Origin: a virus
Taxonomy: Duplodnaviria > Caudoviricetes
Strand: one strand, 5' to 3'
Virus record (IMG/VR): IMGVR_UViG_3300005259_000074
Location: 64,001-128,000 of that record
DNA: 64,000 nucleotides
The notes under the pieces are model-generated. The model did not search any database. It was given only the letters and a program-made list of their open reading frames with translations, and was not told the DNA's origin. Position 1 is the stretch's first letter. Every line of letters starts with the position of its first letter. Both the position numbers and the translations under genes were made by a program. Below, piece after piece: positions 7,712 through 32,014 of this stretch.

Positions 7712-8008
7712 GTGAAGAAGTTATTGTTGACTCCGGAAGAAGACGCCGTGTTAGATGAGGCGTTCACTCGGATAGCTGATGTCCTAGAAGTCGCAGTATG
7801 CTCGTGCGATCCCGAAGTCGAGAGCGACGAGGGTACTCGTAGAAAAATTGATCGAGTGCTCCAATGGTTTGTCGCAGAGGGGTTCTTCTTGGGCTTCATC
7901 TCTCGTGTATTAGAAGAAGAGAGAATTTACGCCAACGGAGTGTATCTAGCACCGATAGAAGTGACTATAATGTTCGAAAGCGGAGCGACAATAGTCGATA
8001 AAATATGA
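7712..8008 (+). CDS. Hypothetical acidic protein with family-like tail
   Basis: strong SD; ends IVDKI; lacks the Cys pattern. Confidence 0.8.
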   Translation: MKKLLLTPEEDAVLDEAFTRIADVLEVAVCSCDPEVESDEGTRRKIDRVLQWFVAEGFFLGFISRVLEEERIYANGVYLAPIEVTIMFESGATIVDKI

Positions 8009-8307
8009 TCATGGGGTTAGACTACATCTACTTAGAACGGGGGAGGGGACCTGCGTACAGCATCTTCGATAAGAAGATGAAGTGTCTTGGTCTCTCAGGT
8101 AAGTCTATCCCAGGGTGCAAGTTCTATGTCAGAAAGAAGAAGCTCATCCCCTTCTTGGTACTCAAACTACTGCAAGTGAAGGAGGAAGATCGGTGCACTC
8201 CTTTCGAAGTGGGTGACCTAGCCGACATCACCTGCGAGTTCCACAGAGAGAAAAACACTTGTGAAAATCCCGAAGTCAAACTGGAGTTTGCCCTAGAAGA
8301 GGTATGA
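8005..8307 (+). CDS. Cys-rich miniprotein, C-tail family
   Basis: CKFY..C..C..C, ends ALEEV. Confidence 0.82.
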   Translation: MIMGLDYIYLERGRGPAYSIFDKKMKCLGLSGKSIPGCKFYVRKKKLIPFLVLKLLQVKEEDRCTPFEVGDLADITCEFHREKNTCENPEVKLEFALEEV

Positions 8308-8540
8308 CTGTGTTGAAAAGTAAGCGCGAGAGCTTGTGTAAGATTGGAGATGGGTACTATTCGTGCAACTTTGAGTTCAGATTCTTTGACGACTGCGTCC
8401 ACTTTGAACATCTCGACAAAAGGCACATTCCAGGCGTCTGTAAATTCTTTAGGTCAGTCGTAGACACTAACACTATGAAGCTGAGATGCATATGCTCGTG
8501 TCTCGAAGCGGCGGCCGCCGCTGAATTGGAGAACTTGTGA
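8304..8540 (+). CDS. Cys-rich miniprotein, C-tail family
   Basis: CVHF..CKFF..CICSC, ends ELENL. Confidence 0.85.
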   Translation: MTVLKSKRESLCKIGDGYYSCNFEFRFFDDCVHFEHLDKRHIPGVCKFFRSVVDTNTMKLRCICSCLEAAAAAELENL

Positions 8541-8761
8541 GCGAGAACTTCTGCCGGCTCAGAGAGACAGGATACGAGTGTGTTGGCTGTGCTGTCTACA
8601 ACAATGGTGGGTTAGGTTGCACATTCAGGAAATCCGCACTTGGGTCGCAGTGTTCATTCGTCCGAGTTGATGTCGTCGAGCTGTCAGAATGCAAACATGT
8701 CATGTTCTACCACTGCGGGAGTAGAGACGCTCAGATCGAAGCTAAACTCGAGGAAGTCTGA
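8537..8761 (+). CDS. Cys-rich miniprotein, C-tail family
   Basis: NFC.., ends KLEEV. Confidence 0.85.
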   Translation: MSENFCRLRETGYECVGCAVYNNGGLGCTFRKSALGSQCSFVRVDVVELSECKHVMFYHCGSRDAQIEAKLEEV

Positions 8762-8997
8762 TGATCTTGAAGAACATGTGTCAAACGTATTTCAACGATG
8801 GAGTGGGAATGCTAGGCGGAATTTGTCCGCTCAAGGTGAATGATACTGGGTGTGTTCATTTCATAGCGTTCGTCGACGTTAATAAGAACATCTATTGCAT
8901 GCACTTAGGAGTCGCTGGCAACTGCTACTGCTCTAAAGCGATCAGAGAGAACACCACTCCTGACATGAGAACACTCCAAATTCTAGAGGAAATGTGA
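8761..8997 (+). CDS. Cys-rich miniprotein, C-tail family
   Basis: NMC..CVHF..CYC, ends ILEEM. Confidence 0.85.
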   Translation: MILKNMCQTYFNDGVGMLGGICPLKVNDTGCVHFIAFVDVNKNIYCMHLGVAGNCYCSKAIRENTTPDMRTLQILEEM

Positions 8998-9218
8998 TGG
9001 AAAACTGCTGCGTCCCTAATAGAGACGGAACATTCAAGTGCACTGCGTACGCTCCCATATCAGGCAACCACTGCAGGGTGTGCAAGTACTACGAGTCATG
9101 GTACTTGATGTACTTCGGAGAGTGTAAACACCTCTGGAGGACTAACGCAGGATCGCTCACTCGCTGCGAGTGCACTAACGAGTGGGCGCGCATCGGAGAG
9201 GCAATGGAGGAGATATGA
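8994..9218 (+). CDS. Cys-rich miniprotein, C-tail family
   Basis: NCC..CKYY..CEC, ends AMEEI. Confidence 0.85.
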   Translation: MMENCCVPNRDGTFKCTAYAPISGNHCRVCKYYESWYLMYFGECKHLWRTNAGSLTRCECTNEWARIGEAMEEI

Positions 9219-9709
9219 GCATTCCCAAATCGACGCTGCGCATCGACGTATACGACACGCACAGACGGGTCCCGGTTGAACTGATCGATCCCATGTGCGA
9301 GCAGATGGTGCAACTAGAAGAAGAGGGTATGCTGTTGACCAACAAGTTGGGCATCACGCCCGGGCGTCTATTCTCCGCTGAGTCGTTCAGGAGTGATGAA
9401 TTTGGTCTGACTGCTCCCGAAGATTCGGTGTTCTTCGCGCTGATGGACGATCGCGTGCTGGCGGGATACTCTCTGTACAGGCACAACGCAGGCAGGTTGA
9501 GGATAAGTGCGCTGTACGTCGTCCTAGAGTACCGGGGACGAGGGAACGGCCGCAGATTGCTAGAGTGCGTGTTGGCCCACATCGAGGAACACTATCCGTG
9601 TTCCAGCGTGGAGATCGGAGTCATCGCTAACAACACCCGAGCTCTGAAGTTGTACGAAGACTTAGGTTTCACAGTCCCGACTCACTACACGTTCATGAGA
9701 TCGAAATGA
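9215..9709 (+). CDS. GNAT-family acetyltransferase
   Basis: LYVVLEYRGRGNGRRLL acetyl-CoA motif A and NTRALKLYEDLGF motif B; start moved to ATGA overlap. Confidence 0.88.
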   Translation: MSIPKSTLRIDVYDTHRRVPVELIDPMCEQMVQLEEEGMLLTNKLGITPGRLFSAESFRSDEFGLTAPEDSVFFALMDDRVLAGYSLYRHNAGRLRISALYVVLEYRGRGNGRRLLECVLAHIEEHYPCSSVEIGVIANNTRALKLYEDLGFTVPTHYTFMRSK

Positions 9710-9942
9710 ACTGCTGCCGCATACTCAGAGCGATAGAACCGTGCGAAGAGTACCCTCGTGGGGAGATTGAGACGTCCTGTGGTGCCGAAGATGATTTCAG
9801 GTCGTGTGAGCACGCCTTTCTAGCTGAAAATGATAGGTGCATGCACTGGTGTTTAGGGTACGACAGCTGTCGGTGTCATCAAGCTATCATAGATAATCTG
9901 CCAAGAGACATCAAAATTTGGTTGAAATTAAACGACATATGA
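9706..9942 (+). CDS. Cys-rich miniprotein, C-tail family
   Basis: MNCC..CRC, ends KLNDI. Confidence 0.85.
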   Translation: MNCCRILRAIEPCEEYPRGEIETSCGAEDDFRSCEHAFLAENDRCMHWCLGYDSCRCHQAIIDNLPRDIKIWLKLNDI

Positions 9943-10196
9943 AAACTAACGAATGTTTATATGTTATATTCTTAAACGGAAGAGGCGGGTATTGGTGCAA
10001 TGCAGCTCTCGCGCATAGCGCCGTCAGCAAAGAAGTGACTTTCAACGGTTGGATAGAGCGAATGAACCACTGCGAGGGTTTCTCACTAGAAGAGGGAAAC
10101 ACTTTCTGCAAGTACTTCAAGGAGAAGGAGACGACGTGCACTCACCGAAGATTGAGAAAAGAAGCTCGCCTCCTTTACAAATTAGAAGAACTGTGA
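9939..10196 (+). CDS. Cys-rich miniprotein, C-tail family
   Basis: start moved to MKTNEC; ends KLEEL. Confidence 0.85.
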   Translation: MKTNECLYVIFLNGRGGYWCNAALAHSAVSKEVTFNGWIERMNHCEGFSLEEGNTFCKYFKEKETTCTHRRLRKEARLLYKLEEL

Positions 10197-10315
10197 CGAG
10201 AGAGGAAGAGATCATCGATGAATGTATGATGACTTTGCTAAAAGAAGCTTTCGCAAAGGCGATAGATGAAATTACAAGTGATATGGAAGCAGATGATAGA
10301 CTAGAAAAGTTATGA
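10193..10315 (+). CDS. 40-aa acidic peptide with family tail
   Basis: GTGA overlap; ends RLEKL. Confidence 0.6.
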   Translation: MTREEEIIDECMMTLLKEAFAKAIDEITSDMEADDRLEKL

Positions 10316-11643: not shown

Positions 11644-13794
11644 ATGGCATCTGTAAGCACACTTGGGGCACCCGGCGTCGCTATCAGGGAGATAGACCTC
11701 TCGCAGGTCGCTCCGGCGATACAGGGGACATACTGCCTCGTTCCGGGTTTCACCGACCAGGGTCAAGAATTAGAACCCCTGGTGATCAACACGACCGACG
11801 ACTACACCGCCACATATGGTGAGCCAACTAACGAAGCCGAACGCTACCACTACTACGCTTCGCAGTCAGTCCTCTCCAACGGCGGCACGCTGATCGTCGC
11901 GAAGCTTCCCTACAACAACGTCATCAGCAAGAACTACAAGTTCGTCGGGCTGAACGTGGACACTGGGACTGCTATCACCACTGCCGCTCCGGCGTATCTT
12001 CGTCCTTTGACAGGCTCTACCTACGGTTTCACGAAGTATGCGGCGATAACAGCGTCTTCTGCGACTAACATGGCGACCAGCGGTTACGACCAGATCGTCG
12101 CTGGTGGAGACTTCCCGACTGTCGCTTCGTCTTACGACTTCGTGGTGATCGACGACTCCAAGTCGAGGATCAGTGGTCCCGCTTCTAACGAAGGCATATT
12201 CGTAGCGATCGTAGATCCTTACGACGCGATGAACGTCCAACGTGCTCTCCCGAGTCCGTCCGACGATGACGTCATGGACTGCATAGAGGGTATCAGCTAT
12301 CCAGCTGGAATAGCTCTCAGCGCTTTCATGACTCCCCTCACAGGAGAGTACAAAGGATCTTCTCTCTCAGAAGATGTCGCGAGACAGTTCCCAACTATCG
12401 TTTACGAGACAGGCGGCAACAAGCTCAATCCAGAGTACAGCCAGTACCTCGGACTCGTAGTCTGCAGGATATTCACCGACTCCAACTCTCAAGGCTTGCT
12501 CAATGCTAGCATCTTGGAGGCGTTCGTCGGCAGCATTCACAAAGGCAAGAGGGACTCTATCACCGGTCAGTCTGTCTACTTAGGCGACTTGGTCAACGCT
12601 GGCTCTAAGTACATCAAGTTCTACAGGAACGAGACGCTCGCATCTCTCTTCCCAGTGGACTCAGACACAACTGTGATAGATAAGTCTAGCTCAACTTATC
12701 CGCTCCTCGGGTTCACCGACGCAGAGAGTGTGAAGCTCGTCCAGGGCACACAGGTCGTGACTAACCTCAACCTCGCTTTCGCCAAGATCAGCAACCTCGA
12801 CGAGATGCAGGTCGACGTAGTAGTCGACGCCGGCGTGTCTACTATCGCTCAGTTCTGCGACGACACGACTTCCGGCTCGCTGTTCGACCCGGTGCTGGAC
12901 GCAGACTCCGGCGACGTCCCTCCGATCACCTCTTCTACGGCGATCGCGACTTGGTGGAGTGTCGTGACTGCGATGGAGCAGTTCTGCAGCAAGACCCGCA
13001 AGGACTGCATGGCGATCGTAGACGTCCCGAGGAACTTAGTCCTCCAGGGGAACTCGAAGCTCATCAGGAAGACTGCGCCTAACAACACGTTCGGCAACAC
13101 CATCGCACCGTGTCTGAGGTTCGTCACGGGTCTGAACAGCTCGTACGCAGCGATGTACTCCGACTGGTTCTACGCACTCGACACCTACTCCGGCACGCAG
13201 TTCTGGATGCCCCAGACTTGCAAGGTCGGTGGAGTGTACTGCTTCAACGACTCGGTCGGGAACATCTGGGACGCGCCAGCAGGTCTCAACCGCGGCGTCG
13301 TATCGGGAGTCGTGGACCTGGCTTTCAACCCAGGACAGAATACCGACGACGTGCAGCTCTACAGCAAGAGCATCAACTACGCAAGGAAGTACCAGCTAGA
13401 TGGGTTCATCGTAGAGGGCCAGAAGACAACGCAGGCAAAGAACAGCGCATTCGACAGGGTCAACGTGCGCAGGCTCTTCCTCAGGTTGGAGAGGCTCACG
13501 AGAGCTGTCGCCCGTTATTTCGTATATGAACCCAATAACTTGTTCACTCGCCGTCGGTTGGTAGACACACTCAAGCCAACGTTCAACGCGTTTAAGGCTG
13601 CTGGCGGTCTGTACGACTACCAAATCCTGTGTTCTGAAAAAAATAACACGGCAGAAGTTATTGACCGTAACGAGATGAAAGTGGCAGTTCTCCTCAAGCC
13701 AGTTCGCACCGCGGAAATGATTGAGGTAGATTTTGTAGCAACACGCACGGACGCTAACTTCGAGGAGATCATCCAGCAGGTGACAGCCGTCTGA
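11644..13794 (+). CDS. Tail sheath protein (T4 gp18-like)
   Basis: PGVAIREIDLS N-terminus, WDAPAGLNRG, FDRVNVRRLFL, KPVRTAEMI..FVATRT. Confidence 0.96.
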   Translation: MASVSTLGAPGVAIREIDLSQVAPAIQGTYCLVPGFTDQGQELEPLVINTTDDYTATYGEPTNEAERYHYYASQSVLSNGGTLIVAKLPYNNVISKNYKFVGLNVDTGTAITTAAPAYLRPLTGSTYGFTKYAAITASSATNMATSGYDQIVAGGDFPTVASSYDFVVIDDSKSRISGPASNEGIFVAIVDPYDAMNVQRALPSPSDDDVMDCIEGISYPAGIALSAFMTPLTGEYKGSSLSEDVARQFPTIVYETGGNKLNPEYSQYLGLVVCRIFTDSNSQGLLNASILEAFVGSIHKGKRDSITGQSVYLGDLVNAGSKYIKFYRNETLASLFPVDSDTTVIDKSSSTYPLLGFTDAESVKLVQGTQVVTNLNLAFAKISNLDEMQVDVVVDAGVSTIAQFCDDTTSGSLFDPVLDADSGDVPPITSSTAIATWWSVVTAMEQFCSKTRKDCMAIVDVPRNLVLQGNSKLIRKTAPNNTFGNTIAPCLRFVTGLNSSYAAMYSDWFYALDTYSGTQFWMPQTCKVGGVYCFNDSVGNIWDAPAGLNRGVVSGVVDLAFNPGQNTDDVQLYSKSINYARKYQLDGFIVEGQKTTQAKNSAFDRVNVRRLFLRLERLTRAVARYFVYEPNNLFTRRRLVDTLKPTFNAFKAAGGLYDYQILCSEKNNTAEVIDRNEMKVAVLLKPVRTAEMIEVDFVATRTDANFEEIIQQVTAV

Positions 13795-14049: not shown

Positions 14050-14283
14050 TTACAGTGAATCTAAGCTGTATTCTATCGCAGCTTCCGCGATAGCATCTTC
14101 GCACTTGCATATGCGAAGCGAGAACTCTCGGAAATGACAGTGAGTTACTTTCCTCGCGAGGAAGATGCGCTCTTCCATCTTTTTGTAGAAGACGCATTCT
14201 TTTTCGCGGCTAGTATCACAGACGAAGATGTGATCTGGAGCGTGTGCCACGCTGTCCTCTCTAGAGCACATGTTAGTCTTCAT
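14050..14283 (-). CDS. Cys-rich miniprotein, C-tail family
   Basis: start moved to MKTNMC; ends SLDSL-TAA with no coupled downstream gene. Confidence 0.85.
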   Translation of the reverse strand: MKTNMCSREDSVAHAPDHIFVCDTSREKECVFYKKMEERIFLARKVTHCHFREFSLRICKCEDAIAEAAIEYSLDSL

Positions 14284-14501
14284 ATATTCTCCAGGGTTAA
14301 AACACACAACGCATCTGTCCTAGCGTCTTCACTTTCACAAGCGTAAATGAATTGCATGTTTTTGCACCACCAACTAGACGAACTGTCTTCTGGTTTTTCG
14401 TAGTACTTACATCTTTTCACGCTCGACATGCTGCAGTCGCATAAGAAACTCCTCTGACCACCGCGATCGTCGATGCGACAATAGTTCTCTTTAGTCTTCA
14501 T
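14280..14501 (-). CDS. Cys-rich miniprotein, C-tail family
   Basis: NYC..CKYY, ends TLENI. Confidence 0.85.
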   Translation of the reverse strand: MKTKENYCRIDDRGGQRSFLCDCSMSSVKRCKYYEKPEDSSSSWWCKNMQFIYACESEDARTDALCVLTLENI

Positions 14502-14782
14502 AGTTCTTCAATCTTTCTCAGCGCCCAGTACTCGTCTCTCATCGCTTCTTCTATAGTGAAGTTCATGCACCTCCGGAATTTTCCTTGGTACTTGTGGTGT
14601 ATGCACCAACCGCTCTTGTCATTTTCTCTGAAAGCGCAGTCTTCGATATCCATTGGACTCTCACAACCCAATGTGATGTACACCTTTTCATTCTGAGTGA
14701 CATCCCATGTAAAAGCGCTGACGCTTATGTTAGTCTTATTACCCAAGCAAGACGTAGTCTTCCACTGTTCGGTGTCTTTCAC
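14498..14782 (-). CDS. Cys-rich miniprotein, C-tail family
   Basis: ends KIEEL. Confidence 0.85.
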   Translation of the reverse strand: MKDTEQWKTTSCLGNKTNISVSAFTWDVTQNEKVYITLGCESPMDIEDCAFRENDKSGWCIHHKYQGKFRRCMNFTIEEAMRDEYWALRKIEEL

Positions 14783-15000
14783 AACAATTCCAATCTGTAC
14801 TGCAGTTCGGCTTCTGGATACATTTCCTCATTCCCACAACGCATCCAACGATCGTCGACTCCGTAGAATATACACCGTCTCATTCCATCTTCAAGATCTT
14901 CAATGTATCCAATGCAATGCTCTTGGTCTTTGGGCGTATCATATGCTGCGCACTCTTTGTTGCCATATTTGTCAATACAGCATAGATTTTTCTTCTTCAT
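14779..15000 (-). CDS. Cys-rich miniprotein, C-tail family
   Basis: NLCC.., ends RLELL. Confidence 0.85.
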   Translation of the reverse strand: MKKKNLCCIDKYGNKECAAYDTPKDQEHCIGYIEDLEDGMRRCIFYGVDDRWMRCGNEEMYPEAELQYRLELL

Positions 15001-15245
15001 ATGTCTTCTAACTTCATCTCAGCGATTTTCATTGGAAGCCACACGCTGATTATAGTCGGATGATGACATATTTCTTCATATCTTACACACATATCACAGT
15101 GCCCTCCGTCTAACCGCTTCATCGCCCCGTACTGGCACAGGTGATTCTGCTCGCCGCTACTGCATATAGCCCGGTCTTCATCGAAGAGCACTGTGAAGAA
15201 GTTCTCGATGTCTCTCATGATGTCGTCATCGGTCACATCTTTCAC
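14997..15245 (-). CDS. Cys-rich miniprotein, C-tail family
   Basis: ends KLEDI. Confidence 0.85.
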   Translation of the reverse strand: MKDVTDDDIMRDIENFFTVLFDEDRAICSSGEQNHLCQYGAMKRLDGGHCDMCVRYEEICHHPTIISVWLPMKIAEMKLEDI

Positions 15246-15457
15246 AGCTGTTCTAACCTCAAGTCCACTGAAGCGTCGGCTATAGCTGCTTCACAGTGAC
15301 ACTCTCTCAATCCATTCTCCCTGAACTTACACGAACGATGATGCACAGTGATCTTTTCGTAGAACACACAGTAATCCTCGTTCCCGATGTCACACGCGAA
15401 GAAACCATCAGAAGGATCTAACCAGAATACCTCCCAAAAGCACATGTTTCTTTTCAC
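15242..15457 (-). CDS. Cys-rich miniprotein, C-tail family
   Basis: NMC..CVFY..CHC, ends RLEQL. Confidence 0.85.
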   Translation of the reverse strand: MKRNMCFWEVFWLDPSDGFFACDIGNEDYCVFYEKITVHHRSCKFRENGLRECHCEAAIADASVDLRLEQL

Positions 15458-15666
15458 AGTTCTTCTATCTTCTTTCTGACGTCCTCTTCCAGATGAACGT
15501 CGATGCTTCTACAATATCCACCTTCCCTGTGCACACAGCTAAGTCTGTTGAAGAACAGCCCTCTTACGTAGAACTCGCACTTCAGCTCATCTTCCTCTTC
15601 TGTTGCACTGCACCAGTAGAGGTATTTCCCGAAGAACGGCTGCAACGAGCGAAAGCAGTTGTTCAC
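15454..15666 (-). CDS. Cys-rich miniprotein, C-tail family
   Basis: GTG start via GTGA overlap; ends KIEEL. Confidence 0.85.
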   Translation of the reverse strand: MNNCFRSLQPFFGKYLYWCSATEEEDELKCEFYVRGLFFNRLSCVHREGGYCRSIDVHLEEDVRKKIEEL

Positions 15667-15893
15667 AGAGACCTCATTTTGGCGTCTACTATCGCATCTC
15701 TGTTCTTGCACAGCGATTCTACAACAAGCACACTGAGGATCATGGATATGTGTAAGTGAATGCATCCAAATGCTTTATCATCATCTCCTTCAAAATATTG
15801 ACAAGGTGGTGTCGTCTTAGAAGTATATGTACACCTATAGAACTCCTCTCCAGTCTTATCTATTGTCCATATCTCGCACATGTTGTCTCTCAT
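15663..15893 (-). CDS. Cys-rich miniprotein, C-tail family
   Basis: start moved to MRDNMC; ends KMRSL (variant). Confidence 0.82.
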   Translation of the reverse strand: MRDNMCEIWTIDKTGEEFYRCTYTSKTTPPCQYFEGDDDKAFGCIHLHISMILSVLVVESLCKNRDAIVDAKMRSL

Positions 15894-16129
15894 ATGTTGT
15901 CTAACGCTGATTCGGCTAGTGCGACCGAGTTGGTGCACTCTTGTCCTTGTCCGCGTGACTTCACATATATGCATCCATTCCAACACGATTCCCATGTATG
16001 AGGATCAGCTTCCGGAGCACACTTGAAGTGTATGCAAAGATTAATGCACATATTAGTCTTTGCATTAGTAACTATCTGTCTAAGGCACTTTCCCCCGACG
16101 ACGCAGTTGTTCTTCAAGTAAACTCTCAT
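15890..16129 (-). CDS. Cys-rich miniprotein, C-tail family
   Basis: ends ALDNI. Confidence 0.85.
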   Translation of the reverse strand: MRVYLKNNCVVGGKCLRQIVTNAKTNMCINLCIHFKCAPEADPHTWESCWNGCIYVKSRGQGQECTNSVALAESALDNI

Positions 16130-16323
16130 AGTTCCTCGATCTTTCGCTCTATCACTGCATCTTTACTCTTACATCGCCCCCAGCGACGCCAATGAGCGCA
16201 ACACGCGTCTTCTTTTCCGCACTCGTAATAATGGCACAGCAGCATCTCGTACACTGTTGAAGTATCACAGAAGTACTTTTTGTTTCGCTCTATACACAAG
16301 TTCTTCTTCTCAAGGTCTTTCAT
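16126..16323 (-). CDS. Cys-rich miniprotein, C-tail family
   Basis: NLC..CHYY, ends KIEEL. Confidence 0.85.
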   Translation of the reverse strand: MKDLEKKNLCIERNKKYFCDTSTVYEMLLCHYYECGKEDACCAHWRRWGRCKSKDAVIERKIEEL

Positions 16324-16535
16324 ATGCTGTCTAACTTAAAAATACTCTGTGATTCTCTCCACGCTTCTTCATTAGCGCACCAGAAAGAAAATTTAAAACG
16401 CTTATTGTGACCGCATAGGTAGGTAGTCTGGTACTTGCATCGCATGCCAGTGTAGCTGTAATTCATCCGCACGAAGAACTTACACTGACTGCTAGTACAT
16501 ACTCTATCCGCAGAGCACCTGTTATTCTTAGTCAT
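16320..16535 (-). CDS. Cys-rich miniprotein, C-tail family
   Basis: CKFF.., ends KLDSI. Confidence 0.85.
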   Translation of the reverse strand: MTKNNRCSADRVCTSSQCKFFVRMNYSYTGMRCKYQTTYLCGHNKRFKFSFWCANEEAWRESQSIFKLDSI

Positions 16536-16542
16536 GATACTT

Positions 16543-16791
16543 TTAGATGTCCTCCATCTTCGCCGCCGTGAGTGCTTCGGAGTTCCAGCACTTGTTCACG
16601 TCAAATTCTCCTTCTTTCTCGTGGTGGGCGCAGGCTGGCGTGATGTCTCTGAGGTTTATGCTATGCTTGTAGAATGTGCAGAAGCGTTCGAAAGATGAAT
16701 TGATGGTCATACAAGCACCGTCTACGTGGCAGCAGTTCAATTTCTCGTCGAGTGCGTTTAGATCTTTTGTAAAAGAGATGAGTGGAATCAT
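16543..16791 (-). CDS. Cys-rich miniprotein, C-tail family
   Basis: NCC..CTFY, ends KMEDI-TAA without overlap. Confidence 0.85.
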   Translation of the reverse strand: MIPLISFTKDLNALDEKLNCCHVDGACMTINSSFERFCTFYKHSINLRDITPACAHHEKEGEFDVNKCWNSEALTAAKMEDI

Positions 16792-17024
16792 AGTTCCTCT
16801 ATCTTAGTGTCGAGGAGTGCTTCACTGCACGTGCAGTGAGGTATAGACACGCTGTTGGGATCTCTGATCATCGTCCTCCAACGGCACTGGTTGTCAGCTG
16901 ACTCTCCAAAATAAAAACAAGTGCTGTACATATGACCGGGTGAAAGACACCACCCTTCAGGTGTGCAGAAGTTGAATCCACTGGTCCTCCGCAGTTCTGC
17001 TACGAATTCGTCTACGTCTGTCAT
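16788..17024 (-). CDS. Cys-rich miniprotein, C-tail family
   Basis: NFC..CFYF..CTC, ends KIEEL. Confidence 0.85.
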   Translation of the reverse strand: MTDVDEFVAELRRTSGFNFCTPEGWCLSPGHMYSTCFYFGESADNQCRWRTMIRDPNSVSIPHCTCSEALLDTKIEEL

Positions 17025-17233
17025 AGTAGTTCCATCTCGATAGATAAGATAGCGTCTTTGTCGCTGCAGGCGTATACGTCCGATGAGACGCTGTCATCTG
17101 CGATGCGATGTCCCAAGCACATCAACAGCTCTTTGTCTAACTTAAAGAAAGGGCACTTATCCTCATCTTCGAAGCCGTTAGCAGTGCACTGGTAGTCCCC
17201 ATTATCAGACCTAGCTATCACGTCACTCGTCAT
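17021..17233 (-). CDS. Cys-rich miniprotein, C-tail family
   Basis: start moved to MTSDV; CPFF; ends EMELL. Confidence 0.8.
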   Translation of the reverse strand: MTSDVIARSDNGDYQCTANGFEDEDKCPFFKLDKELLMCLGHRIADDSVSSDVYACSDKDAILSIEMELL

Positions 17234-17729
17234 CTTGTATGTAGGTGAACTGCCTCCCCGGTCCAGACGATCGCATGTCAGCTTCTGCTCCTCCATCTTC
17301 GTCGCTGAACGTCATGTAGTACACGTCATTACCAATGAACTTCTTCGAGATCTCTCTCGATATGATGTTGTACCCCAGGCACATGATGAGGGCCTTCTCT
17401 TCGTCGGTGTCGTACGTGTCATCGACGTCTATGATCTTTGAGATAGTGTCATGTTCTTTGTTGATGACATCGCGCAGCAATTTATCGATGTCATTGTGTG
17501 ATCTCCTAGACAGAGTAGTTGCATTGTCGTTGTACTTGACTCTCGACACCAGCGCATGCGCGACTCCGATAGCGCTAGCCGAGACATTCGCGAGTTCTTG
17601 GTCGATCACAGGGCGCTCGTCTTCACTGCACTGGTCCAGCAGTTTATTGCGTTCTTTTGGGTCTTTCGGAATGACCACTATGAACGAGGAAGAACTGCTG
17701 TTCGAGACGAATCCATTTCGAATCTTCAT
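17223..17729 (-). CDS. NSSSSS-leader family protein
   Basis: MKIRNGFVSNSSSSSFIVV N-terminus. Confidence 0.88.
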   Translation of the reverse strand: MKIRNGFVSNSSSSSFIVVIPKDPKERNKLLDQCSEDERPVIDQELANVSASAIGVAHALVSRVKYNDNATTLSRRSHNDIDKLLRDVINKEHDTISKIIDVDDTYDTDEEKALIMCLGYNIISREISKKFIGNDVYYMTFSDEDGGAEADMRSSGPGRQFTYIQDDE

Positions 17730-21935: not shown

Positions 21936-21936
21936 C

Positions 21937-22406: not shown

Positions 22407-22621
22407 AGAAAAACATGGGTGTGATAGTTGAGAGCAAAGCTACGAACACAGAGGAACTACTGTGCATTGCGATATCTGACTTCTTTGAAACGGAGTGCAA
22501 GTTCTATTCACAGTCTGAAGGTGAATTCCGAATATGTAAGCACGCTTTAGATTCTCACTTCTGTGCATGTGCAGAAGCTAAAATGGACGCACTGACAGAT
22601 AAGAGGATGAACCAGAAATGA
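22403..22621 (+). CDS. Cys-rich miniprotein, atypical tail
   Basis: CKFY..C..CAC; ends KRMNQK. Confidence 0.82.
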   Translation: MKKNMGVIVESKATNTEELLCIAISDFFETECKFYSQSEGEFRICKHALDSHFCACAEAKMDALTDKRMNQK

Positions 22622-22920
22622 GTGTGGACTATATGAGATCCTACAGGTTAGACATGGAGAATAACCGAAAACGTAAGAAGACGTTGGAACCGATGCAGAA
22701 CTTCTGCAAGGTGTACGAAGAGCTCAACACCGTCACTAGAAAAGTCGACACTGCGCAGAAGACTTGCGCCGCGCCGTCTAACCAAGCGTACCGCTGCACG
22801 TTCTTCAAGTTCAAGTGTCATGACACATGCGAGTACATGGAGTGGTCTGATGAGTTAGACTGCACTAACAAAGAAGCGTACAGAGATGCGATGACGAACG
22901 AGAAGTTAGAGCAGATATGA
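22618..22920 (+). CDS. Cys-rich miniprotein, C-tail family
   Basis: NFC..CTFF, ends KLEQI. Confidence 0.85.
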   Translation: MSVDYMRSYRLDMENNRKRKKTLEPMQNFCKVYEELNTVTRKVDTAQKTCAAPSNQAYRCTFFKFKCHDTCEYMEWSDELDCTNKEAYRDAMTNEKLEQI

Positions 22921-23144
22921 CTGGCTGCAAACTCATCAACAATAGCACCGTGAATTCGGACGGCTTTCCAGTGTGCGGCATAGATATGAACTCGCAGAGC
23001 CTGTCGACATGCGATCACTACACGAGGTACATGGGTTACAACGGTCGACACACGTGTTCCAATTATGATCGGAAGTACAGAGAGTGTCTCAACGAAGAAG
23101 CGATAAAGGAAGCGAAATTAGACAGACGATTGGAGAACTTGTGA
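22917..23144 (+). CDS. Cys-rich miniprotein, C-tail family
   Basis: CDHY.., ends RLENL. Confidence 0.85.
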   Translation: MTGCKLINNSTVNSDGFPVCGIDMNSQSLSTCDHYTRYMGYNGRHTCSNYDRKYRECLNEEAIKEAKLDRRLENL

Positions 23145-23205
23145 AACGACTGGAGAACGTCACTATCGCGGGCACCCGTTCACTAGTCTTTCCGCGGTAT
23201 ATGAT

Positions 23206-23388
23206 ATGTCTTCACAGGATAAAGTACTCGTGTGGCAGTACGAGTGTCGTGACAATATGATAGAGGAGAACGTTAAGTCTATGATTGACAACCGCCGTTC
23301 GTGCAAATACGTGAGGCTGCTGTCCAATAACGACGTATTCTGTATTCACGAAGAAGCAACACTACAAAGAAGACTGGAAGAACTATGA
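23206..23388 (+). CDS. Cys-containing miniprotein, C-tail family
   Basis: C..CKY..C, ends RLEEL; coupled to radical SAM gene. Confidence 0.8.
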   Translation: MSSQDKVLVWQYECRDNMIEENVKSMIDNRRSCKYVRLLSNNDVFCIHEEATLQRRLEEL

Positions 23389-24458
23389 ACACTGAGATTA
23401 TGAGGCTCTGGCACCGCGCAGTTAAAGATGGGAAGATTAAGGAGAATGAAAACTTCAAGATCTTGTTCTCACCGGAATACAACTTCGCTTTCGACAAGCG
23501 CACAGGCATGTTCGCTCGCTGGGGGAAGACTCTCGAAGAAGACCCTCAGTGGAGTCCCTACGGTCCGGAGATTGCTGACATAGAGATATCTGCAGGTGAG
23601 TGCTCGTCTCGGTGCGCGTTCTGCTACAAGGGGAACGGCGACCATTCCGGCAGAGCCAACAACATGTCTCTCGACACGTTCAAGAAGCTGTTCAGCAAGC
23701 TCCCGAAGACCGTCACACAGATCGCCTTCGGCATATGCGACGTCACCACTAACGAGGACTTCTTTTCCATCATGGAGTACTCGAAGTCGAACGGCGTCAT
23801 CCCGAACTACACATGCAACGGGCACTTCGTGACTGACGGAGTCGCCATGGCCACAGCAGCTCTCTGCGGCGCAGTGGCTGTGTCAGTCGTCGACAAGCAG
23901 CTCAGCTACGACGCCATCAAGAAGTTCACAGATGCTGGGATGAAGCAAGTGAACATACACGCCCTACTCAGCGAAGAGACCTACGACAAGTGCATGGGCA
24001 TCGTAGACGACATGGCGACTGACCCTCGCTTAGCTAAAATGAGGGCTATAGTGTTCCTCCAGTACAAGCACAAGAATCCGAAGTCTCCGTTCCACTCGAT
24101 GATAGACAAGGTGAAGTACCAGAAGTTGGTCGCGCACTGCCAGCGGAGGGGGATTAACTTCGGCTTCGACTCATGCTCCGCAAACCTCTTCGTCGAGAGC
24201 ATGGAGGGACATCCTCAGCTAGACCAGTTTAAGTCCGTCTCAGAGCCATGTGAGAGTGGAGTATTCAGTTCCTATATCAATTGGGAGGGAAAGTTCTTCC
24301 CGTGCAGCTTCTGCGAGAACGTGAAAGACTGGAAAGAAGGACTGGATGCAGTCAACTGCGAGGACTTCTTAAAAGACGTGTGGATGCATCCTCGTGTGCA
24401 GGAGTTCCGCGCTAGACTACTGGATAACAAACGCAATTGCTTGATGTACAACATATAA
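23385..24458 (+). CDS. Radical SAM protein with SPASM/twitch-like C-terminus
   Basis: CSSRCAFC (CxxxCxxC); C-terminal CESG..YINWEGKFFPCSF. Confidence 0.93.
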   Translation: MNTEIMRLWHRAVKDGKIKENENFKILFSPEYNFAFDKRTGMFARWGKTLEEDPQWSPYGPEIADIEISAGECSSRCAFCYKGNGDHSGRANNMSLDTFKKLFSKLPKTVTQIAFGICDVTTNEDFFSIMEYSKSNGVIPNYTCNGHFVTDGVAMATAALCGAVAVSVVDKQLSYDAIKKFTDAGMKQVNIHALLSEETYDKCMGIVDDMATDPRLAKMRAIVFLQYKHKNPKSPFHSMIDKVKYQKLVAHCQRRGINFGFDSCSANLFVESMEGHPQLDQFKSVSEPCESGVFSSYINWEGKFFPCSFCENVKDWKEGLDAVNCEDFLKDVWMHPRVQEFRARLLDNKRNCLMYNI

Positions 24459-24721: not shown

Positions 24722-25191
24722 CGATGAAGACGTACTTCAGTGACGAACTACTCCCAACTGACTTCGACGGAAGTGTATTCCTCGCTGGACCGACTCCGCG
24801 AGACCGCGCTCTCAAGTCATGGAGGCCAATGGCAGTAGAGATGTTGACCTTCGGCGGCACCTTCAAGAAGTGTTTCATTCCAGAGAGAAAAGATTGGAAA
24901 GTTGGATTCGACTACATAGACCAAGTGGAATGGGAGCTCGAAGCGCTCGAGAAGTGCTCCGTCATATTGTTCTGGGTTCCACGAGACATTAAGACTATGC
25001 CAGCATTCACGACGAACGTTGAGTTCGGGATGTTCGTGCGAGACTCGAGGAGCGTGTACGGCCGCCCTCCCAATGCAGAGAACTGTAGATACCTCGACTA
25101 CGTGTACAAAAAGTTCAGAGGGCTCCGCCCGGCAGTTAACTTGCAGATACTCGTGTCTAGCGCTGAGAACACTATGGTGAACTCGTGTTGA
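24718..25191 (+). CDS. Nucleoside 2-deoxyribosyltransferase-like protein
   Basis: VFLAGPTPR, QVEWE, ILFWVPRDIKTMPAFTTNVEFG motifs. Confidence 0.85.
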   Translation: MTMKTYFSDELLPTDFDGSVFLAGPTPRDRALKSWRPMAVEMLTFGGTFKKCFIPERKDWKVGFDYIDQVEWELEALEKCSVILFWVPRDIKTMPAFTTNVEFGMFVRDSRSVYGRPPNAENCRYLDYVYKKFRGLRPAVNLQILVSSAENTMVNSC

Positions 25192-25625
25192 CGTCAATAA
25201 GGCTGGCTGAGGTATTGATCAACCCTCCGTATAAATTCGAGCGCCATAATTTGTACTCCGTGTGCTCTATAGAAGACACCTCAGTCAATCTGATATGGAT
25301 GTGGAAACCAGAAGACGTCGCGACGGTGCAGCGTGCGTGGTTAGAAGATGTGATATCGCTCTATGATAGCGGCGTATTCGCCGAGGAGAGACGGCAGATT
25401 TTCAGATCTTGGTTCGAAGACTCAAAGTGTAGAGTCGGTTGCATATACAGCATCTCGAATGCACTTTCTTCTAGGTACGAGAATGACCTCAAAGAGCTAG
25501 GCTCAAGGTTGTCTTGCATAGACATCGCTGGATATGAGTGGAGAGAGTACTTTTACGCTGCTGACGAGAGAGGAAGAAAATTCTTGCAAGAAGCAGAGAT
25601 CATGGCAAAACTAGAACTGTTGTGA
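25185..25625 (+). CDS. Hypothetical protein carrying the family tail
   Basis: non-family fold ending AKLELL. Confidence 0.78.
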   Translation: MLTSIRLAEVLINPPYKFERHNLYSVCSIEDTSVNLIWMWKPEDVATVQRAWLEDVISLYDSGVFAEERRQIFRSWFEDSKCRVGCIYSISNALSSRYENDLKELGSRLSCIDIAGYEWREYFYAADERGRKFLQEAEIMAKLELL

Positions 25626-26111: not shown

Positions 26112-26120
26112 GGAGACAGC

Positions 26121-26474: not shown

Positions 26475-26487
26475 CGGGAGATGCAGA

Positions 26488-27235: not shown

Positions 27236-28159
27236 ATGGAAAAGAGAGAACTCTGGGTAGACAAACACGCCCCACCGACTCTCGATGACATGGTCATCGA
27301 CAGCGACATGAGGAAGATGTTCGAAGAGTACGTCAAGCAGAAGACGATCCCCAACATGCTGCTCGCCGGAAGACAGGGAACTGGAAAGAGCACGTTGGCT
27401 CATGCATTAGCCCACGACATCGGTGCGACAGTGCTCTACGTCAATGCTGGATACGAGTCAGGCATTGAAGTCATAAGGACTAAGGTCAAAGACTTCTGCG
27501 ATGCTTTCGCTTTCGGCGGTGCACTCAAAGTCGTGATATTAGATGAGGCGGACGCTCTATCAGGTCAGGGTGGTGGAGGGAACGGCGCCAGCGCTCAGGG
27601 AGGTCTCAGAAACCTCATTGAAGAGGCGTCTGATGACACTCGCTTCATCATGACGTGTAACTACGTGAACAAGATAATTCCCGCACTACAATCACGCTGC
27701 ACGCCTATAAAGGTCAAGTTTACCGTAGAAGACGTGATGCGGAGAGTCGTGAAGATACTGAAAGCCGAGAAGGTGAAGTTCGACGCAGACACCCTAACGG
27801 CATTCACCGCTAGGATCGTCAAGAAGAAGTTCCCAGACGTCAGGTCGATCATCAACTGCTTGGAGCAGTGGAGCATATCCGGAGAGCTGAAAGACGGAAA
27901 AGCTACTGATGACCAAGCTGGCGATGAAGTGGTGAATAAGATACTCGCTTTTGGGACTATGAGAGAAGCTCGCGAGTGGTGGATATCGAACGAAGAGGCG
28001 TTCGCGTCTGACTACGAAGCGCTAGCGTCTAAGGTGTTCGACGCGCTAGAAGACCCGAAGAAGCAGCTCGCTGTGGCCGAGGGGATGTACCGCATGGCGG
28101 TCTGCCTCGACAAGGAGATCCAGTTCGCAGCGATGGTTTACCAACTCAAGGGATCGTGA
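27236..28159 (+). CDS. Clamp loader AAA+ subunit (T4 gp44 / RFC small subunit-like)
   Basis: WVDKHAP, Walker A GRQGTGKS, Walker B ILDEAD, SRC motif. Confidence 0.95.
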   Translation: MEKRELWVDKHAPPTLDDMVIDSDMRKMFEEYVKQKTIPNMLLAGRQGTGKSTLAHALAHDIGATVLYVNAGYESGIEVIRTKVKDFCDAFAFGGALKVVILDEADALSGQGGGGNGASAQGGLRNLIEEASDDTRFIMTCNYVNKIIPALQSRCTPIKVKFTVEDVMRRVVKILKAEKVKFDADTLTAFTARIVKKKFPDVRSIINCLEQWSISGELKDGKATDDQAGDEVVNKILAFGTMREAREWWISNEEAFASDYEALASKVFDALEDPKKQLAVAEGMYRMAVCLDKEIQFAAMVYQLKGS

Positions 28160-28160: not shown

Positions 28161-28649
28161 ATGTCAAACAGCACTGCCGGTGTTCCGCAGTCTACTTCTA
28201 TGTTGACAGCAGAGAACTTGTGCAGCAGCCGCGCATCGATAGATTCCCTACATGTCAATAAATCTTTGAACGCAAACACCGCTCAGATATCATGCGACAA
28301 TGTGGACATTGACATGTCAAATTCAAATTTGAGGATGTCTGGTGGAATTTTAAACATGTTGAATACATCTGTGTTTATTTCTGAGTCAATGAATCTGCAC
28401 TTTGGAAAACTGCATATCAGATCGGTCGATGGACTACCCAATGATGTACTGCCATGCAAGGAGATCTCCGATTGCGAGATATTTAGAGGGTCAACGTTAA
28501 TTGTCTCTTATGACAGCATAGTCCACATGGCGTTCACACCGTTCTGCTACCATTGCACTCACTTTAATCCAGACAGAATAGACTTTAAGAAGAAAATAGC
28601 AGATCACTACAAAGACGCCGAAGCCAACAAGAAGTTAGAATCTATCTGA
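28161..28649 (+). CDS. Hypothetical protein carrying the family tail
   Basis: C-terminal CYHC; ends KKLESI. Confidence 0.7.
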   Translation: MSNSTAGVPQSTSMLTAENLCSSRASIDSLHVNKSLNANTAQISCDNVDIDMSNSNLRMSGGILNMLNTSVFISESMNLHFGKLHIRSVDGLPNDVLPCKEISDCEIFRGSTLIVSYDSIVHMAFTPFCYHCTHFNPDRIDFKKKIADHYKDAEANKKLESI

Positions 28650-28661: not shown

Positions 28662-28901
28662 ATGGAACACATAGATATAAAAGAACACTGTGAACCGGTG
28701 TATTCATCTAGTCATCCACCGTACTTGCACTGCAAATACCAGAACGAGTTTTCCGAAAGAATGTACCGGTGTCCGATGTTTGAATCATCTTTCGTCGACA
28801 AAAATTTCTGCTACTGGTTCATTGCGAGAGATCGTGGAGAGTGCCGGACCCCATCCGCGCTGAAGGAACTAGAAGTAGATGAGAAGATGGACAGCATATG
28901 A
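28662..28901 (+). CDS. Cys-rich miniprotein, C-tail family
   Basis: C..C..CPMF..C..C, ends KMDSI. Confidence 0.85.
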   Translation: MEHIDIKEHCEPVYSSSHPPYLHCKYQNEFSERMYRCPMFESSFVDKNFCYWFIARDRGECRTPSALKELEVDEKMDSI

Positions 28902-29143
28902 GGATGACGTTCAAATATCATAAACACGGAGACCGCCGTACTGTCAAGAAGTTCATATGGTGGCCTATGATACTGATGCTAGACCCACCGAAGAACGGTT
29001 CTCTCGAACGGGGTGATGTGCAGATGCGGTGGTTGGAGTACACTTACGTCACTCAGCTGTACCTCATTAGCGGAAAAGGATCTCACTGGATAGACTTTTG
29101 TTGGGGTGACGCTGCGTTAGAAAGAGCTCTTGATGACCTCTAG
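28898..29143 (+). CDS. Hypothetical protein carrying the family tail
   Basis: KKFIWWP..RWLE; ends ALDDL-TAG. Confidence 0.78.
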   Translation: MRMTFKYHKHGDRRTVKKFIWWPMILMLDPPKNGSLERGDVQMRWLEYTYVTQLYLISGKGSHWIDFCWGDAALERALDDL

Positions 29144-29969: not shown

Positions 29970-30033
29970 GTCTCTATTTATCATTTCAGAAACATCTCGT
30001 TGATAATTAACGACTTAGAAGAAATAATGCGAG

Positions 30034-30122: not shown

Positions 30123-30431
30123 AAAGCAAGAACGAAGCGAGACCTCGAGATCGACCTCGACGTCATGACCAACCAGTACAACGAGGCGATGAAGAGGGCG
30201 AACGCGGCTGAAGCAAAACTTGCTCAGTGCACGAAGTACGCGGTCCTCCAACTCTGTCCCGCATATCCCACACTCGAAGACTTGAAAGGGGCAGAATGCG
30301 AGGCCGAGCAGGCGGACGTCAGAGACACCAAAGAAGACGCCAATATTCTTGCTCGCTATCGGAATGCCGTCAGCGTCACTGAAAATTACATCATCGCCGA
30401 AGTCTTCAACGGCAAATTCACCGGAAAGTGA
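30120..30431 (+). CDS. Hypothetical early protein
   Basis: first gene after the promoter cassette. Confidence 0.8.
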   Translation: MKARTKRDLEIDLDVMTNQYNEAMKRANAAEAKLAQCTKYAVLQLCPAYPTLEDLKGAECEAEQADVRDTKEDANILARYRNAVSVTENYIIAEVFNGKFTGK

Positions 30432-30742
30432 GATACGCAATGGAGCAGACACTCAGGAAGTACTGCGATAAGACGGATTTTGGCATCATCCGTAAGACGA
30501 TAGCCGAGGTCGGAGCCCTCCACGGTTTCGGACATGGGACGGGAAAGATCTACTCGGTCCGTAAAGCGCTGGAAGACGCCAGCATACAGCCACCGCCGGT
30601 AGAATCTCTCGACGCCCTCATAGCGGTCGCCATCAACATCATTCGCGACACGGACCACGAACTGGCAGCTCGGTTCCAGAGCTACGACCTAGACGAGATC
30701 ACCACCGACGAATTCACCAAGAACATGAGGGACGGAAAGTGA
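30428..30742 (+). CDS. Hypothetical protein
   Basis: GTGA-coupled ORF. Confidence 0.75.
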   Translation: MRYAMEQTLRKYCDKTDFGIIRKTIAEVGALHGFGHGTGKIYSVRKALEDASIQPPPVESLDALIAVAINIIRDTDHELAARFQSYDLDEITTDEFTKNMRDGK

Positions 30743-31155
30743 AGACAGAAAACGTGCTGACTTTGCTCAAGAAGGTGGGGACTCCTGATGACGTGCTCAA
30801 TAAGATGAGGCTCGACATACTGAGTGACGGCGTTGAACCAGTCTTAGAGGGCTTCTTGGAGAAATTGAACCACGACGAGATCAAAAAACTCTGTTCTTCC
30901 ATCCGGACTTCTTACAGAGGCACGGTCAATTTCATACCGATTATCATCACAATGTTGAAAAACTTCTCGTCAGCCTACCCTGATCTGGACATGCGAGTTC
31001 TCATCGAGAAGACTGAGCGCGCGCGCGATAAAAAGGAATTTTTGAAAGAATTGCGCGAGGTAATGAACTTACCTCTTCAAGACAAAGCAAAGAATGACGC
31101 CGCTCGTCGGAAGTTCTTGTCTGAGCACTTCGCGAACATAATGAATGAAGAGTAG
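30739..31155 (+). CDS. Hypothetical helical protein
   Basis: GTGA-coupled ORF. Confidence 0.78.
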   Translation: MKTENVLTLLKKVGTPDDVLNKMRLDILSDGVEPVLEGFLEKLNHDEIKKLCSSIRTSYRGTVNFIPIIITMLKNFSSAYPDLDMRVLIEKTERARDKKEFLKELREVMNLPLQDKAKNDAARRKFLSEHFANIMNEE

Positions 31156-31158
31156 GAT

Positions 31159-31380
31159 GTGGTGAAGCGGGAAAACGAGTGTTTCGACGTGGACGATCAC
31201 TGGGACGATGAAGTGAACAACTGTGGTTGTCGTTTCGATAAGAGGTTCTCCCGCTGCCTATTCTACTCGCCAGAGGATGCGGTGTACGACGACTGTAGGT
31301 GGTTTGACGGTTATAGGTACTGCCGAAACCCAGAAGCGATACGCAACAAGAACTTATACAGAGCGATTGACGAAATATGA
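31159..31380 (+). CDS. Cys-rich miniprotein, C-tail family
   Basis: NEC..CLFY..C..C, ends AIDEI. Confidence 0.85.
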   Translation: MVKRENECFDVDDHWDDEVNNCGCRFDKRFSRCLFYSPEDAVYDDCRWFDGYRYCRNPEAIRNKNLYRAIDEI

Positions 31381-31598
31381 TGACCACTAAAAAGAACATG
31401 TGTTGCGATACTGATGACGTCTTAGGAGGTATGCAGAACTGGTGCGCTGCTACGTCTAGAGGACACCTACAATCGGAGTGCAAGTTCTATGGAAAACTTG
31501 CAACTGGATCGTGCTACTGGCGAGACAGATCTGCAATGTGCACTAACCCACTGGCGATAGAAGACAAAGACCTGACTAACGCACTGGAGAAAATATGA
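31377..31598 (+). CDS. Cys-rich miniprotein, C-tail family
   Basis: NMCC..CKFY, ends ALEKI. Confidence 0.85.
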   Translation: MMTTKKNMCCDTDDVLGGMQNWCAATSRGHLQSECKFYGKLATGSCYWRDRSAMCTNPLAIEDKDLTNALEKI

Positions 31599-32014
31599 AC
31601 ACTAGGAGGACGACAGTGGAATCTCACATGAAAGCGACTAGCAAGATGCTAGCAAAGAGGCTGAACAAGACGGCAGAGCTCGCCGAAGACCTCAGGAAGG
31701 AACGCGACATCCTCAGAAGGGGACTGCTCCTGTCGCTCTTGCTGTCCGTCAAGTGGTCTACGAACAAGAAGTCCAACTTCGACCGGCGGAACTCGTGGGA
31801 GGCCAAGATAGGCAGAGAAGCTATCCCGAGGACTGACCTCCGGAAACACGAGACGTTCGGCTACGACTCCGATAGACACGAGGAGACTTCGAAGACTCAC
31901 GTCTTCGTGTGGACTCAGTGCGCTGACGAAGACGGGATCGTGCTCGTCTGCTCTGACATCTCCAGCGAAAAGAAAGTGCGCGCTATTCTCCGACAGCACT
32001 TGGAAGACCTCTGA
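31595..32014 (+). CDS. Hypothetical protein carrying the family tail
   Basis: non-family fold ending HLEDL. Confidence 0.78.
   Translation: MNTRRTTVESHMKATSKMLAKRLNKTAELAEDLRKERDILRRGLLLSLLLSVKWSTNKKSNFDRRNSWEAKIGREAIPRTDLRKHETFGYDSDRHEETSKTHVFVWTQCADEDGIVLVCSDISSEKKVRAILRQHLEDL

Follow-up and report, generated by a model that had tools for sequence, protein, structure and literature searches.

A shared C-terminal peptide on about a third of the predicted proteins of a large phage genome is dual-coded with ribosome-binding sites

The window analyzed here is a stretch of 64,000 nucleotides (nt), bases 64001-128000 of the virus record IMGVR_UViG_3300005259_000074 (262,470 base pairs; GC content 48.7%), classified as a provirus in IMG/VR and 97% complete according to CheckV. 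It contains arrays of genes for cysteine (Cys) miniproteins, together with enzyme and virion genes (Table 1), and most members of the miniprotein family terminate in a common short peptide with the consensus K-h-E-[ED]-h (h, hydrophobic residue). An earlier note, made from the letters of the sequence, had claimed that the same tail is grafted onto proteins lacking the Cys scaffold and that it constitutes a portable protein-level address or degron rather than only a by-product of translation signals. Every one of the termini quoted in its support (IVDKI, RLEKL, KLEGL, KLELL, KLESI, ALDDL, HLEDL and SIDNL) was found to be present. In what follows, "tagged" denotes a protein ending in the motif [LIVM]-[DEN]-x-[LIVM]-stop; "genome" coordinates refer to the whole record.

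The record being unannotated, genes were called with a model combining dicodon log-likelihood, Shine-Dalgarno (SD) sequences and start codons, followed by interval scheduling. This yielded 463 genes, with a coding density of 92%. All counts rest on these calls, of which a few very short ones are doubtful (e.g., the 40 amino acid (aa) open reading frame (ORF) at 10193-10315); furthermore, the caller missed some small downstream ORFs. Family membership was scored with a hidden Markov model (HMM) built without the last 8 residues of the Cys proteins and hence blind to the tail. Genome-wide, 158 of the 463 proteins are tagged, about a third of the proteome. The HMM recognizes 110 proteins, 100 of which are tagged; the 58 tagged proteins outside it include about 40 without a Cys scaffold. 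Putting aside 47 further Cys-rich proteins leaves a "non-Cys" set of 306, in which the motif is found at 40 C-termini (13%) against a rate of 1.2% per internal position (binomial p = 2e-28). In uncalled shadow ORFs it occurs at 17 of 1886 ends (0.9%). Comparing terminal with internal frequencies was the check put forward with the original claim, and its outcome confirms the observation, far beyond chance. Tagging declines with protein size, from 139 of 271 proteins under 130 aa, to 14 of 126 between 130 and 299 aa, to 5 of 66 at 300 aa or more. All carriers belong to the fast-evolving accessory genes, and the tail is absent from core enzymes and from virion proteins. As had been claimed, the GNAT, radical SAM/SPASM and clamp-loader enzymes end differently (Table 1), and so do the virion genes: in the structural block, one gene out of 62 matches the motif (a 42-aa ORF), which corresponds to the chance level.

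The conserved module is longer than the motif used to count it. It spans about 11 residues, [DE]-x-x-h-x-x-K-h-E-[DE]-h-COOH, in the pattern of an amphipathic helix. Family tails have E/D at -3 in 98% and at -2 in approximately 59% of cases. Although the tagged non-Cys proteins were chosen solely by their residues at -4, -3 and -1, they carry K at -5 in 20 of 40 cases, I, L or A at -8 and E/D at -11 in 28 of 40. The relative entropy at -5, -8 and -11 is 1.4 bits in these proteins, like in the family, versus about 0.1 bit in untagged proteins; none of the three positions falls within an SD sequence, and they are conserved together across unrelated proteins. Over the last 11 residues, the helical hydrophobic moment averages 1.36 in tagged versus 0.91 in untagged non-Cys proteins. 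The position of the module is strictly terminal. A profile made from the log-odds of the family's last 11 residues, applied with a 10-bit threshold, matches the exact C-terminus of 26 of the 306 non-Cys proteins as opposed to 11 of 60,273 internal positions, a 466-fold enrichment; inside the family bodies it matches one position out of 7,383. Two-domain fusions of the Cys scaffold (7196-7585 on the minus strand, and 2229-2621 of contig L015) have not retained the tail of the first, internal domain. Recent grafting of tails at the DNA level was considered and rejected: compared in pairs, tails agree at only 52% of nucleotides in the final six codons and at 36% in codons -12 to -7, and even the best tail pair across families (26 of 36 nt) lies within chance.

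Dozens of the tagged proteins show no detectable relationship to one another, and at least 40 show none to the family. In an all-against-all BLASTP comparison of bodies deprived of the tail, 118 tagged proteins came out as singletons, and no family was recognized in Pfam, PHROGs or NCBIfam for 20 tagged proteins, the Pyr_excise match of the DenV-like protein described below excepted. The possibility that large tagged proteins are hidden family fusions was discarded, as above 115 aa the HMM detects family domains in just two proteins, and these are true tandem duplications. The shared 11-residue pattern is found on bodies of 67 to 402 aa without detectable similarity. The clearest case of the tail as an add-on, gained or lost, is a 280-aa protein (genome 215796-216638, minus strand) in which a Pyr_excise domain, as in T4 DenV, is followed by a C-terminal extension ending IRKVLDSI. 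Full-length orthologs 64% and 52% identical to it end in RRVLENI and NKILQDI, respectively; a 44% identical ortholog stops about 8 residues earlier (…GCSNERTD) and lacks the tail. The motif was absent from all 116 more distant DenV-like homologs, and T4 DenV itself ends in GKAIYA.

The tail is also linked to the translation of neighboring genes. Out of the 158 tagged genes, 85 overlap the next start codon by 4 nt and 13 more are spaced by -1 or +1. The consensus DNA of tagged genes is AAg-aTG-GAg-GA.-aTA-TGA. When L/M-E-[ED] is spelled xTG-GAG-GAx, it gives a GGAGGA sequence 3-5 nt ahead of the overlapping ATG or GTG, and therefore an SD sequence for the next gene. A 4-mer of the SD core is found in the last 18 nt of 57 of the 85 coupled tagged genes (67%, spacer 2-5) versus 40% of uncoupled ones; in free, non-coding leaders the SD spacer peaks at 5-8. 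These constraints do not account for the motif. Sampling 400,000 six-codon tails from the genome's codon usage, with the requirement for an [AG]TGA overlap and an SD core at a spacer of 3-9, produced it in 1.2% of cases (1.5% with a 5-mer core), and it occurs in 3 of 172 non-coding leaders read in the overlap frame (1.7%). The real overlapping genes with an SD core show it in 33 of 34 family members (97%) and 7 of 31 non-Cys genes (23%). The permutation test under SD and ATGA constraints, an outcome of which could have overturned the earlier claim, thus leaves the motif unexplained. In addition, 56 untagged genes have ATGA overlaps and other endings, such as GGEAIT, KEILA or GPKK.

Tagged genes without coupling also bear on this point. 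In 43 of them the 15 nt downstream contain no start; a check for overlapping ORFs left out of the gene calls reduced these to 28 robustly uncoupled genes, including 15 non-Cys genes. Most lack an SD core, e.g., AAG ATC GAA GAC ATC, AAA CTA GAA CTG TTG (25185..25625) and GCT CTT GAT GAC CTC (28898..29143). The GAG:GAA ratio at -3 is 17:17 in uncoupled genes (50%, the genome mean) versus 49:23 in coupled genes (68%), and codon -4 ends in G in 35% versus 62%; last codons include ATC, CTC and GTT in the former and are NTA or NTG in the latter. The statement that codons vary therefore holds. The related statement that the motif persists at genes with no downstream overlap stands for three of the four genes cited, 14050..14283 and the two genes at 28898 and 32014, which are convergent with the next gene and hence uncoupled. 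The fourth, 16543..16791, was not counted as robustly uncoupled because an unannotated ATG ORF of 71 codons starts 7 nt after its stop. Across tagged genes, variation is seen at first and third codon positions, the second ones being invariant (T at -4 and -1, A at -3), which is the signature of an amino-acid class and not of an RNA motif. What resembles ordinary coupled gene junctions is the 4-nt overlap, the supply of GGAG/GAGG by the E/[ED] codons and a G bias restricted to coupled genes; what differs is that junction constraints predict the peptide in about 1.2% of cases, that the peptide is kept without an SD, and that it spans 11 residues. Since the peptide and SD constraints are both real, the tail is dual-coded, as a peptide and as the ribosome-binding site of the next gene.

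The family is not confined to this genome. A profile search of 1.84 billion representative proteins returned 111 family members, 78 of them from elsewhere, and about 68 of the 78 end in the tail. The gene order of contig L021 (JGI, 14.7 kilobases (kb)) is collinear with that of genome 55.6-69.4 kb. Between the two phages, identity is 100% for the tail tube and 93% for the helicase, whereas the 35 tagged orthologs have a median identity of 49% (range 30-85%), suggesting that the family is under strong diversifying selection or under relaxed selection. Among 40 syntenic orthologs, 33 pairs are tagged in both genomes and the three discordant pairs are one residue apart. The ortholog of the 321-aa gene at 971..1936 (minus strand), 54% identical, keeps the tail (IYAGIDNL). 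No description of the Cys-miniprotein family or of the tag was found in the literature.

A family member modelled with AlphaFold2 from a 44-paralog alignment (predicted local distance difference test score (pLDDT) 83.7, predicted template modelling score 0.72) is predicted to consist of beta-hairpins followed by a C-terminal helix; the tail helix covers residues 70-83, with pLDDT above 90. In the DenV-like model, the enzyme domain is confident but the extension is not (pLDDT 40-66); it ends in a short helix at residues 272-278. A fold search with the miniprotein model (pdb, afdb_clusters, pdb_via_wide) gave no match, the best VIA hit having Z = 2.1.

Table 1. Genes and arrays of the window that bear on the C-terminal tail (window coordinates).
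Position	Strand	Gene or array	C-terminus and stop	Context
971..1936	-	321-aa ORFan; no Cys-family HMM match	IYSSIDNL-TGA	
7712..8008	+	98 aa, 2 Cys	GATIVDKI-TGA	ATGA overlap with next gene
10193..10315	+	40-aa ORF; weak gene call	ADDRLEKL-TGA	last of its plus-strand run
19499..19876	+	125 aa, 2 Cys; no Pfam/PHROG family match	CRIKLEGL-TGA	
25185..25625	+	146 aa	IMAKLELL-TGA	no SD core; next start at least 18 nt away
28161..28649	+	162 aa	ANKKLESI-TGA	1 nt after clamp-loader gene (T4 gp62 position)
28898..29143	+	81 aa, 1 Cys	LERALDDL-TAG	convergent with next gene
31595..32014	+	139 aa, 2 Cys	LRQHLEDL-TGA	
32014..32238	+	Cys-family member	LEEKLNDL-TAA	convergent with next gene
14050..14283	-	Cys-family member	IEYSLDSL-TAA	last of its array, uncoupled
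16543..16791	-	Cys-family member	TAAKMEDI-TAA	called downstream gene 76 nt away
53..7585	-	array of ~28 Cys miniprotein genes	nearly all K-h-E-[ED]-h	mostly ATGA/GTGA overlaps
8005..10196	+	Cys miniprotein array		split by untagged GNAT gene (9215-9709, end FMRSK)
14050..18255	-	Cys miniprotein array		
21099..23388	+	Cys miniprotein array		last member ATGA-overlaps start of radical SAM/SPASM gene
23385..24458	+	radical SAM + SPASM enzyme (phrog_7293), untagged	LMYNI	candidate reader/modifier of the family
27236..28159	+	gp44-type clamp loader, untagged	QLKGS	
11644..13794	+	tail sheath, untagged		virion-gene control

In Table 1, the first number is the gene start on the plus strand and the gene end on the minus strand, as in the earlier note. 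For the protein encoded at 28161..28649, in the position of gp62, no gp62 similarity was detectable, and phmmer against PDB sequences returned no usable match. The DNA of its tail is the same at 24 of 26 nt as the tail of a family member at genome 46220-46480. The stretch 25659-27188 holds a row of four paralog-like genes without the tag (150, 117, 123 and 110 aa), of which three have weak N-terminal matches to phrog_7397 and the 117-aa one has none. A conserved, promoter-like intergenic element, TTCCCTTTACAT-N12-15-(G)TTATATTAGA, is present in about 13 copies, on the plus strand at genome 41568, 47319, 63317, 82419 (window 18419), 160657, 161340, 183642 and 258629, and on the minus strand at genome 258493, 235017, 230905, 160589 and 24357. 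It is often situated just behind an uncoupled tagged gene and upstream of a tagged array, and is probably the early promoter of the phage. A scan for the strict sigma-70 consensus gave 1 match versus 1.7 expected.

The phage is a distant, jumbo T4-type myovirus, with genes for a DNA polymerase of the gp43 type, a clamp loader of the gp44 type, a homolog of gp55 and a prohead protease of the gp21 type. Its tail sheath is only about 29% identical to those of cyanophage and Vibrio T4-like phages. Megablast found no close relative among GenBank phages, and the IMG/VR relatives (56% sheath identity) are short contigs in which no tagged ORFs were found. The listing of sequencing runs contained a small share in one wastewater metagenome as the sole match, and no RNA runs. 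The proteins of the record are assigned to a contig of 313,637 bp, so that about 51 kb of this original contig lie outside the record.

Several known systems resemble the tail in part. The C-termini by which T4 gp43, gp55 and gp33 bind the clamp are described as hydrophobic and acidic, closely alike and freely exchangeable (PMC2988020); read directly, these tails are SLDFL[FYL]. Of the T4 e.2-e.5 tails, those of e.3 and e.4 show only a loose similarity near the terminus, F-[VI]-x-x-C-[RK]. Like the T4 epitope, the tail described here is short, hydrophobic and acidic, portable, located at or near the C-terminus of unrelated proteins of a T4-type phage and built on an h-[DE]-x-h core, K-h-E-[ED]-h being present on at least 40 proteins outside the family. 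Unlike the epitope, which has three carriers and reads S-L-D-F-L-[FYL], it has about 158 carriers, stands at the exact end, is helical and contains no aromatic residue; binding of a clamp would by analogy be a conjecture. Prochlorosin-type libraries, in which a single promiscuous maturase serves numerous precursors, each with a constant part for recognition and a hypervariable core containing Cys, provide another parallel: the family described here has about 110 paralogs, a constant region and hypervariable loops between invariant cysteines, with a radical SAM/SPASM enzyme and a GNAT within the arrays. They differ in that the constant region here is C-terminal and 11 aa long, the proteins (65-100 aa) are predicted to be folded and the tag also occurs on large unrelated proteins, so that modification, too, would be a conjecture based on analogy. 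With ssrA-type degrons the tail has in common its extreme C-terminal position, its portability and an aliphatic last residue. Known C-terminal degrons (those of ClpXP, ClpAP, Tsp and FtsH) end in non-polar residues (LAA), and acidic residues at -2/-3, as in the LDD variants of ssrA, block recognition by ClpXP. In contrast, the tail is acidic at -3 and -2, its last three residues thus departing from the non-polar pattern; in view of what is generally known of such ends, it could equally be a stabilizing cap.

The explanations that dispense with a common reader start from the coupling. If the tail were a pure by-product of the SD and ATGA/GTGA overlap, with no selection on the peptide, the 4-nt overlap of 85 of the 158 tagged genes and the SD core in 67% of these would be expected, but the nulls of 1.2-1.7%, the 28 uncoupled genes that keep the peptide, mostly without an SD core, and the confinement of invariance to second codon positions make this hardly tenable. 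The main rival is a more elaborate version, in which the tail is an entrenched structural helix: coupling would have fixed L/M-E-E/D, the folds would have built a helix around it, and the tail would survive uncoupling as the fold depends on it, its sharing being due to descent or to convergence on the coupling cassette. A number of our results lean this way and against a free peptide with a reader. The miniprotein model includes the helix with high confidence, and the tail may accordingly be, within the family, integral to the fold. Between orthologs, residue identity in the tail (63%) and in the body (52%) points to near-equal drift, with only the residue class kept. Coupled non-Cys genes carry the tail twice as often (22%) as uncoupled ones (approximately 10%), codons being SD-biased in coupled genes, and at identical residues of the L021 orthologs synonymous change is 31% in the last five codons against 43% in the bodies. 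These last two findings indicate that nucleotide-level selection contributes, the reduced synonymous change being consistent with an added RNA-level constraint in these mostly coupled genes; an analysis of synonymous sites in relatives had been suggested as a check. Moreover, in contig L018 (JGI 3300063113), which belongs to a different phage, several small proteins without relationship to each other share the ending ALAGKE[TD]x (TLAGKETI, ALAGKDAL, TLAGKETK and ALSGKDGER between 7161 and 9430) and spell an AAGGAG SD sequence, suggesting that coupling itself may seed such tails. "Unrelated" in our analysis means failure of BLAST and HMM to detect similarity, and small tagged proteins could be family members minus the cysteines. 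Lastly, no reader of the tail was found among the candidates examined. What speaks for more than a structural helix is that SD and overlap predict the motif in about 1.2% of cases and 56 overlapping genes end otherwise, that the -5/-8/-11 pattern goes beyond the SD and recurs on dissimilar bodies of 67 to 402 aa, that the register is strict, and that the DenV-like enzyme occurs with and without its final ~8 residues. On balance, we consider a helix without a reader unlikely, even if it is the strongest competitor.

Explanations that name a particular reader fare less well. In one, the tail would tether some 150 accessory proteins to the sliding clamp. In its favor are the T4 precedent and the existence of DNA-related carriers, namely the enzyme resembling DenV and the protein encoded in the position of gp62; furthermore, the DNA polymerase (genome 213163-215757, minus strand) ends in EEVSDINSL, aligning with EEKASLDFLFG of T4 gp43 and fitting the motif loosely. 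However, this match is within chance (a set of 306 proteins should give about 4 at random), the homolog of gp55 (genome 218161-218712) bears, 17 residues from its end, a T4-like SADFF instead of K-h-E-E-h, and about 150 competitors for three pockets are hard to rationalize. Judging only by similarity of Atlas features, genome 197552-198295 probably encodes a gp45-like clamp. Neither gp45 Pfam models nor the T4 gp45 and gp33 proteins gave a match in the genome; the candidate had no usable phmmer match in PDB sequences, and complex prediction with three copies of it and a miniprotein scored 0.00 with the miniprotein poorly folded, an outcome that speaks neither for nor against binding. We regard tethering to the clamp as highly unlikely. 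Somewhat better placed, though still improbable, is a reader in the form of a phage modifying enzyme or protease, the tail being a follower-type peptide for radical SAM/SPASM or GNAT enzymes, or else a degron or anti-degron cap read by ClpP-like, C39 or host proteases. An ATGA overlap couples translation of the radical SAM/SPASM gene to that of a family member, a GNAT is found within arrays here and in an array on the contig of a relative, and Lys at -5 is conserved. Besides the prohead protease of the gp21 type (window 52777-53514), the phage encodes, outside the window, a ClpP-family protease (genome 226066-226704, plus strand) and a Peptidase_C39 protein that stands alone (genome 227604-228197, minus strand), both adjoining tagged ORFans of 371 and 402 aa in the 226-228 kb region, and a cap would suit the acidic residues at -2/-3. 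As a dedicated reader, the radical SAM enzyme is weakened by the distribution of its homologs (about 40% identity): besides Citrobacter phage Miller, about 170 further T4-like phages of Klebsiella, Enterobacter, Citrobacter and Cronobacter have them, and in phage Miller, the one context inspected, neither the Cys family nor the shared tail surrounds the gene, so that maturase and precursor do not co-occur there. The miniproteins are predicted to be folded, unlike typical precursors of RiPPs (peptides made by ribosomes and modified after translation), and tagged proteins of 280-400 aa would be atypical substrates of such a pathway. The ClpP-like protein, for its part, scores best against models of head-maturation proteases.

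The tail is a selected, portable, strictly C-terminal helix module of about 11 residues, and stacked arrays recruit its h-E-[ED] codons as the SD for the ATGA or GTGA start of the next gene. The interpretation that we favor, with a probability of roughly one half, is that this module serves as a common recognition or docking element. Of the original proposal, the protein-level and portable character is upheld by the nulls, the uncoupled genes, the conservation at -5, -8 and -11 and the DenV-like add-on, with the proviso that selection for the SD is real too; a role as address, degron or enzyme handle would be plausible. In such a scheme, the tail peptide and its free C-terminal end would be read together by a single partner, which would mark the carriers for a shared fate, be it tethering, modification, turnover or protection from turnover. 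More tentatively, the tail could be a proteome-wide address, one phage or host hub, such as the sliding clamp, a modifying enzyme, or a protease or unfoldase, reading the free C-terminal helix of about 150 fast-evolving accessory proteins and setting their place or lifetime; we view this as possible rather than likely. If it were true, the same 15 nt would be both a translation signal for the neighbor and the gene's own address. Coupled and uncoupled copies within one genome make this a clean natural case of dual coding in which both constraints can be separated. No group of proteins of unknown function in phage genomes is larger than the accessory ("early", ORFan) ones, and the tail offers an easy marker by which such genes can be annotated in related phages from metagenomes. 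If a third of the proteome shares the module, a single pull-down with an 11-residue peptide could expose a hub on which the action, modification or clearance of more than 150 uncharacterized proteins depends.

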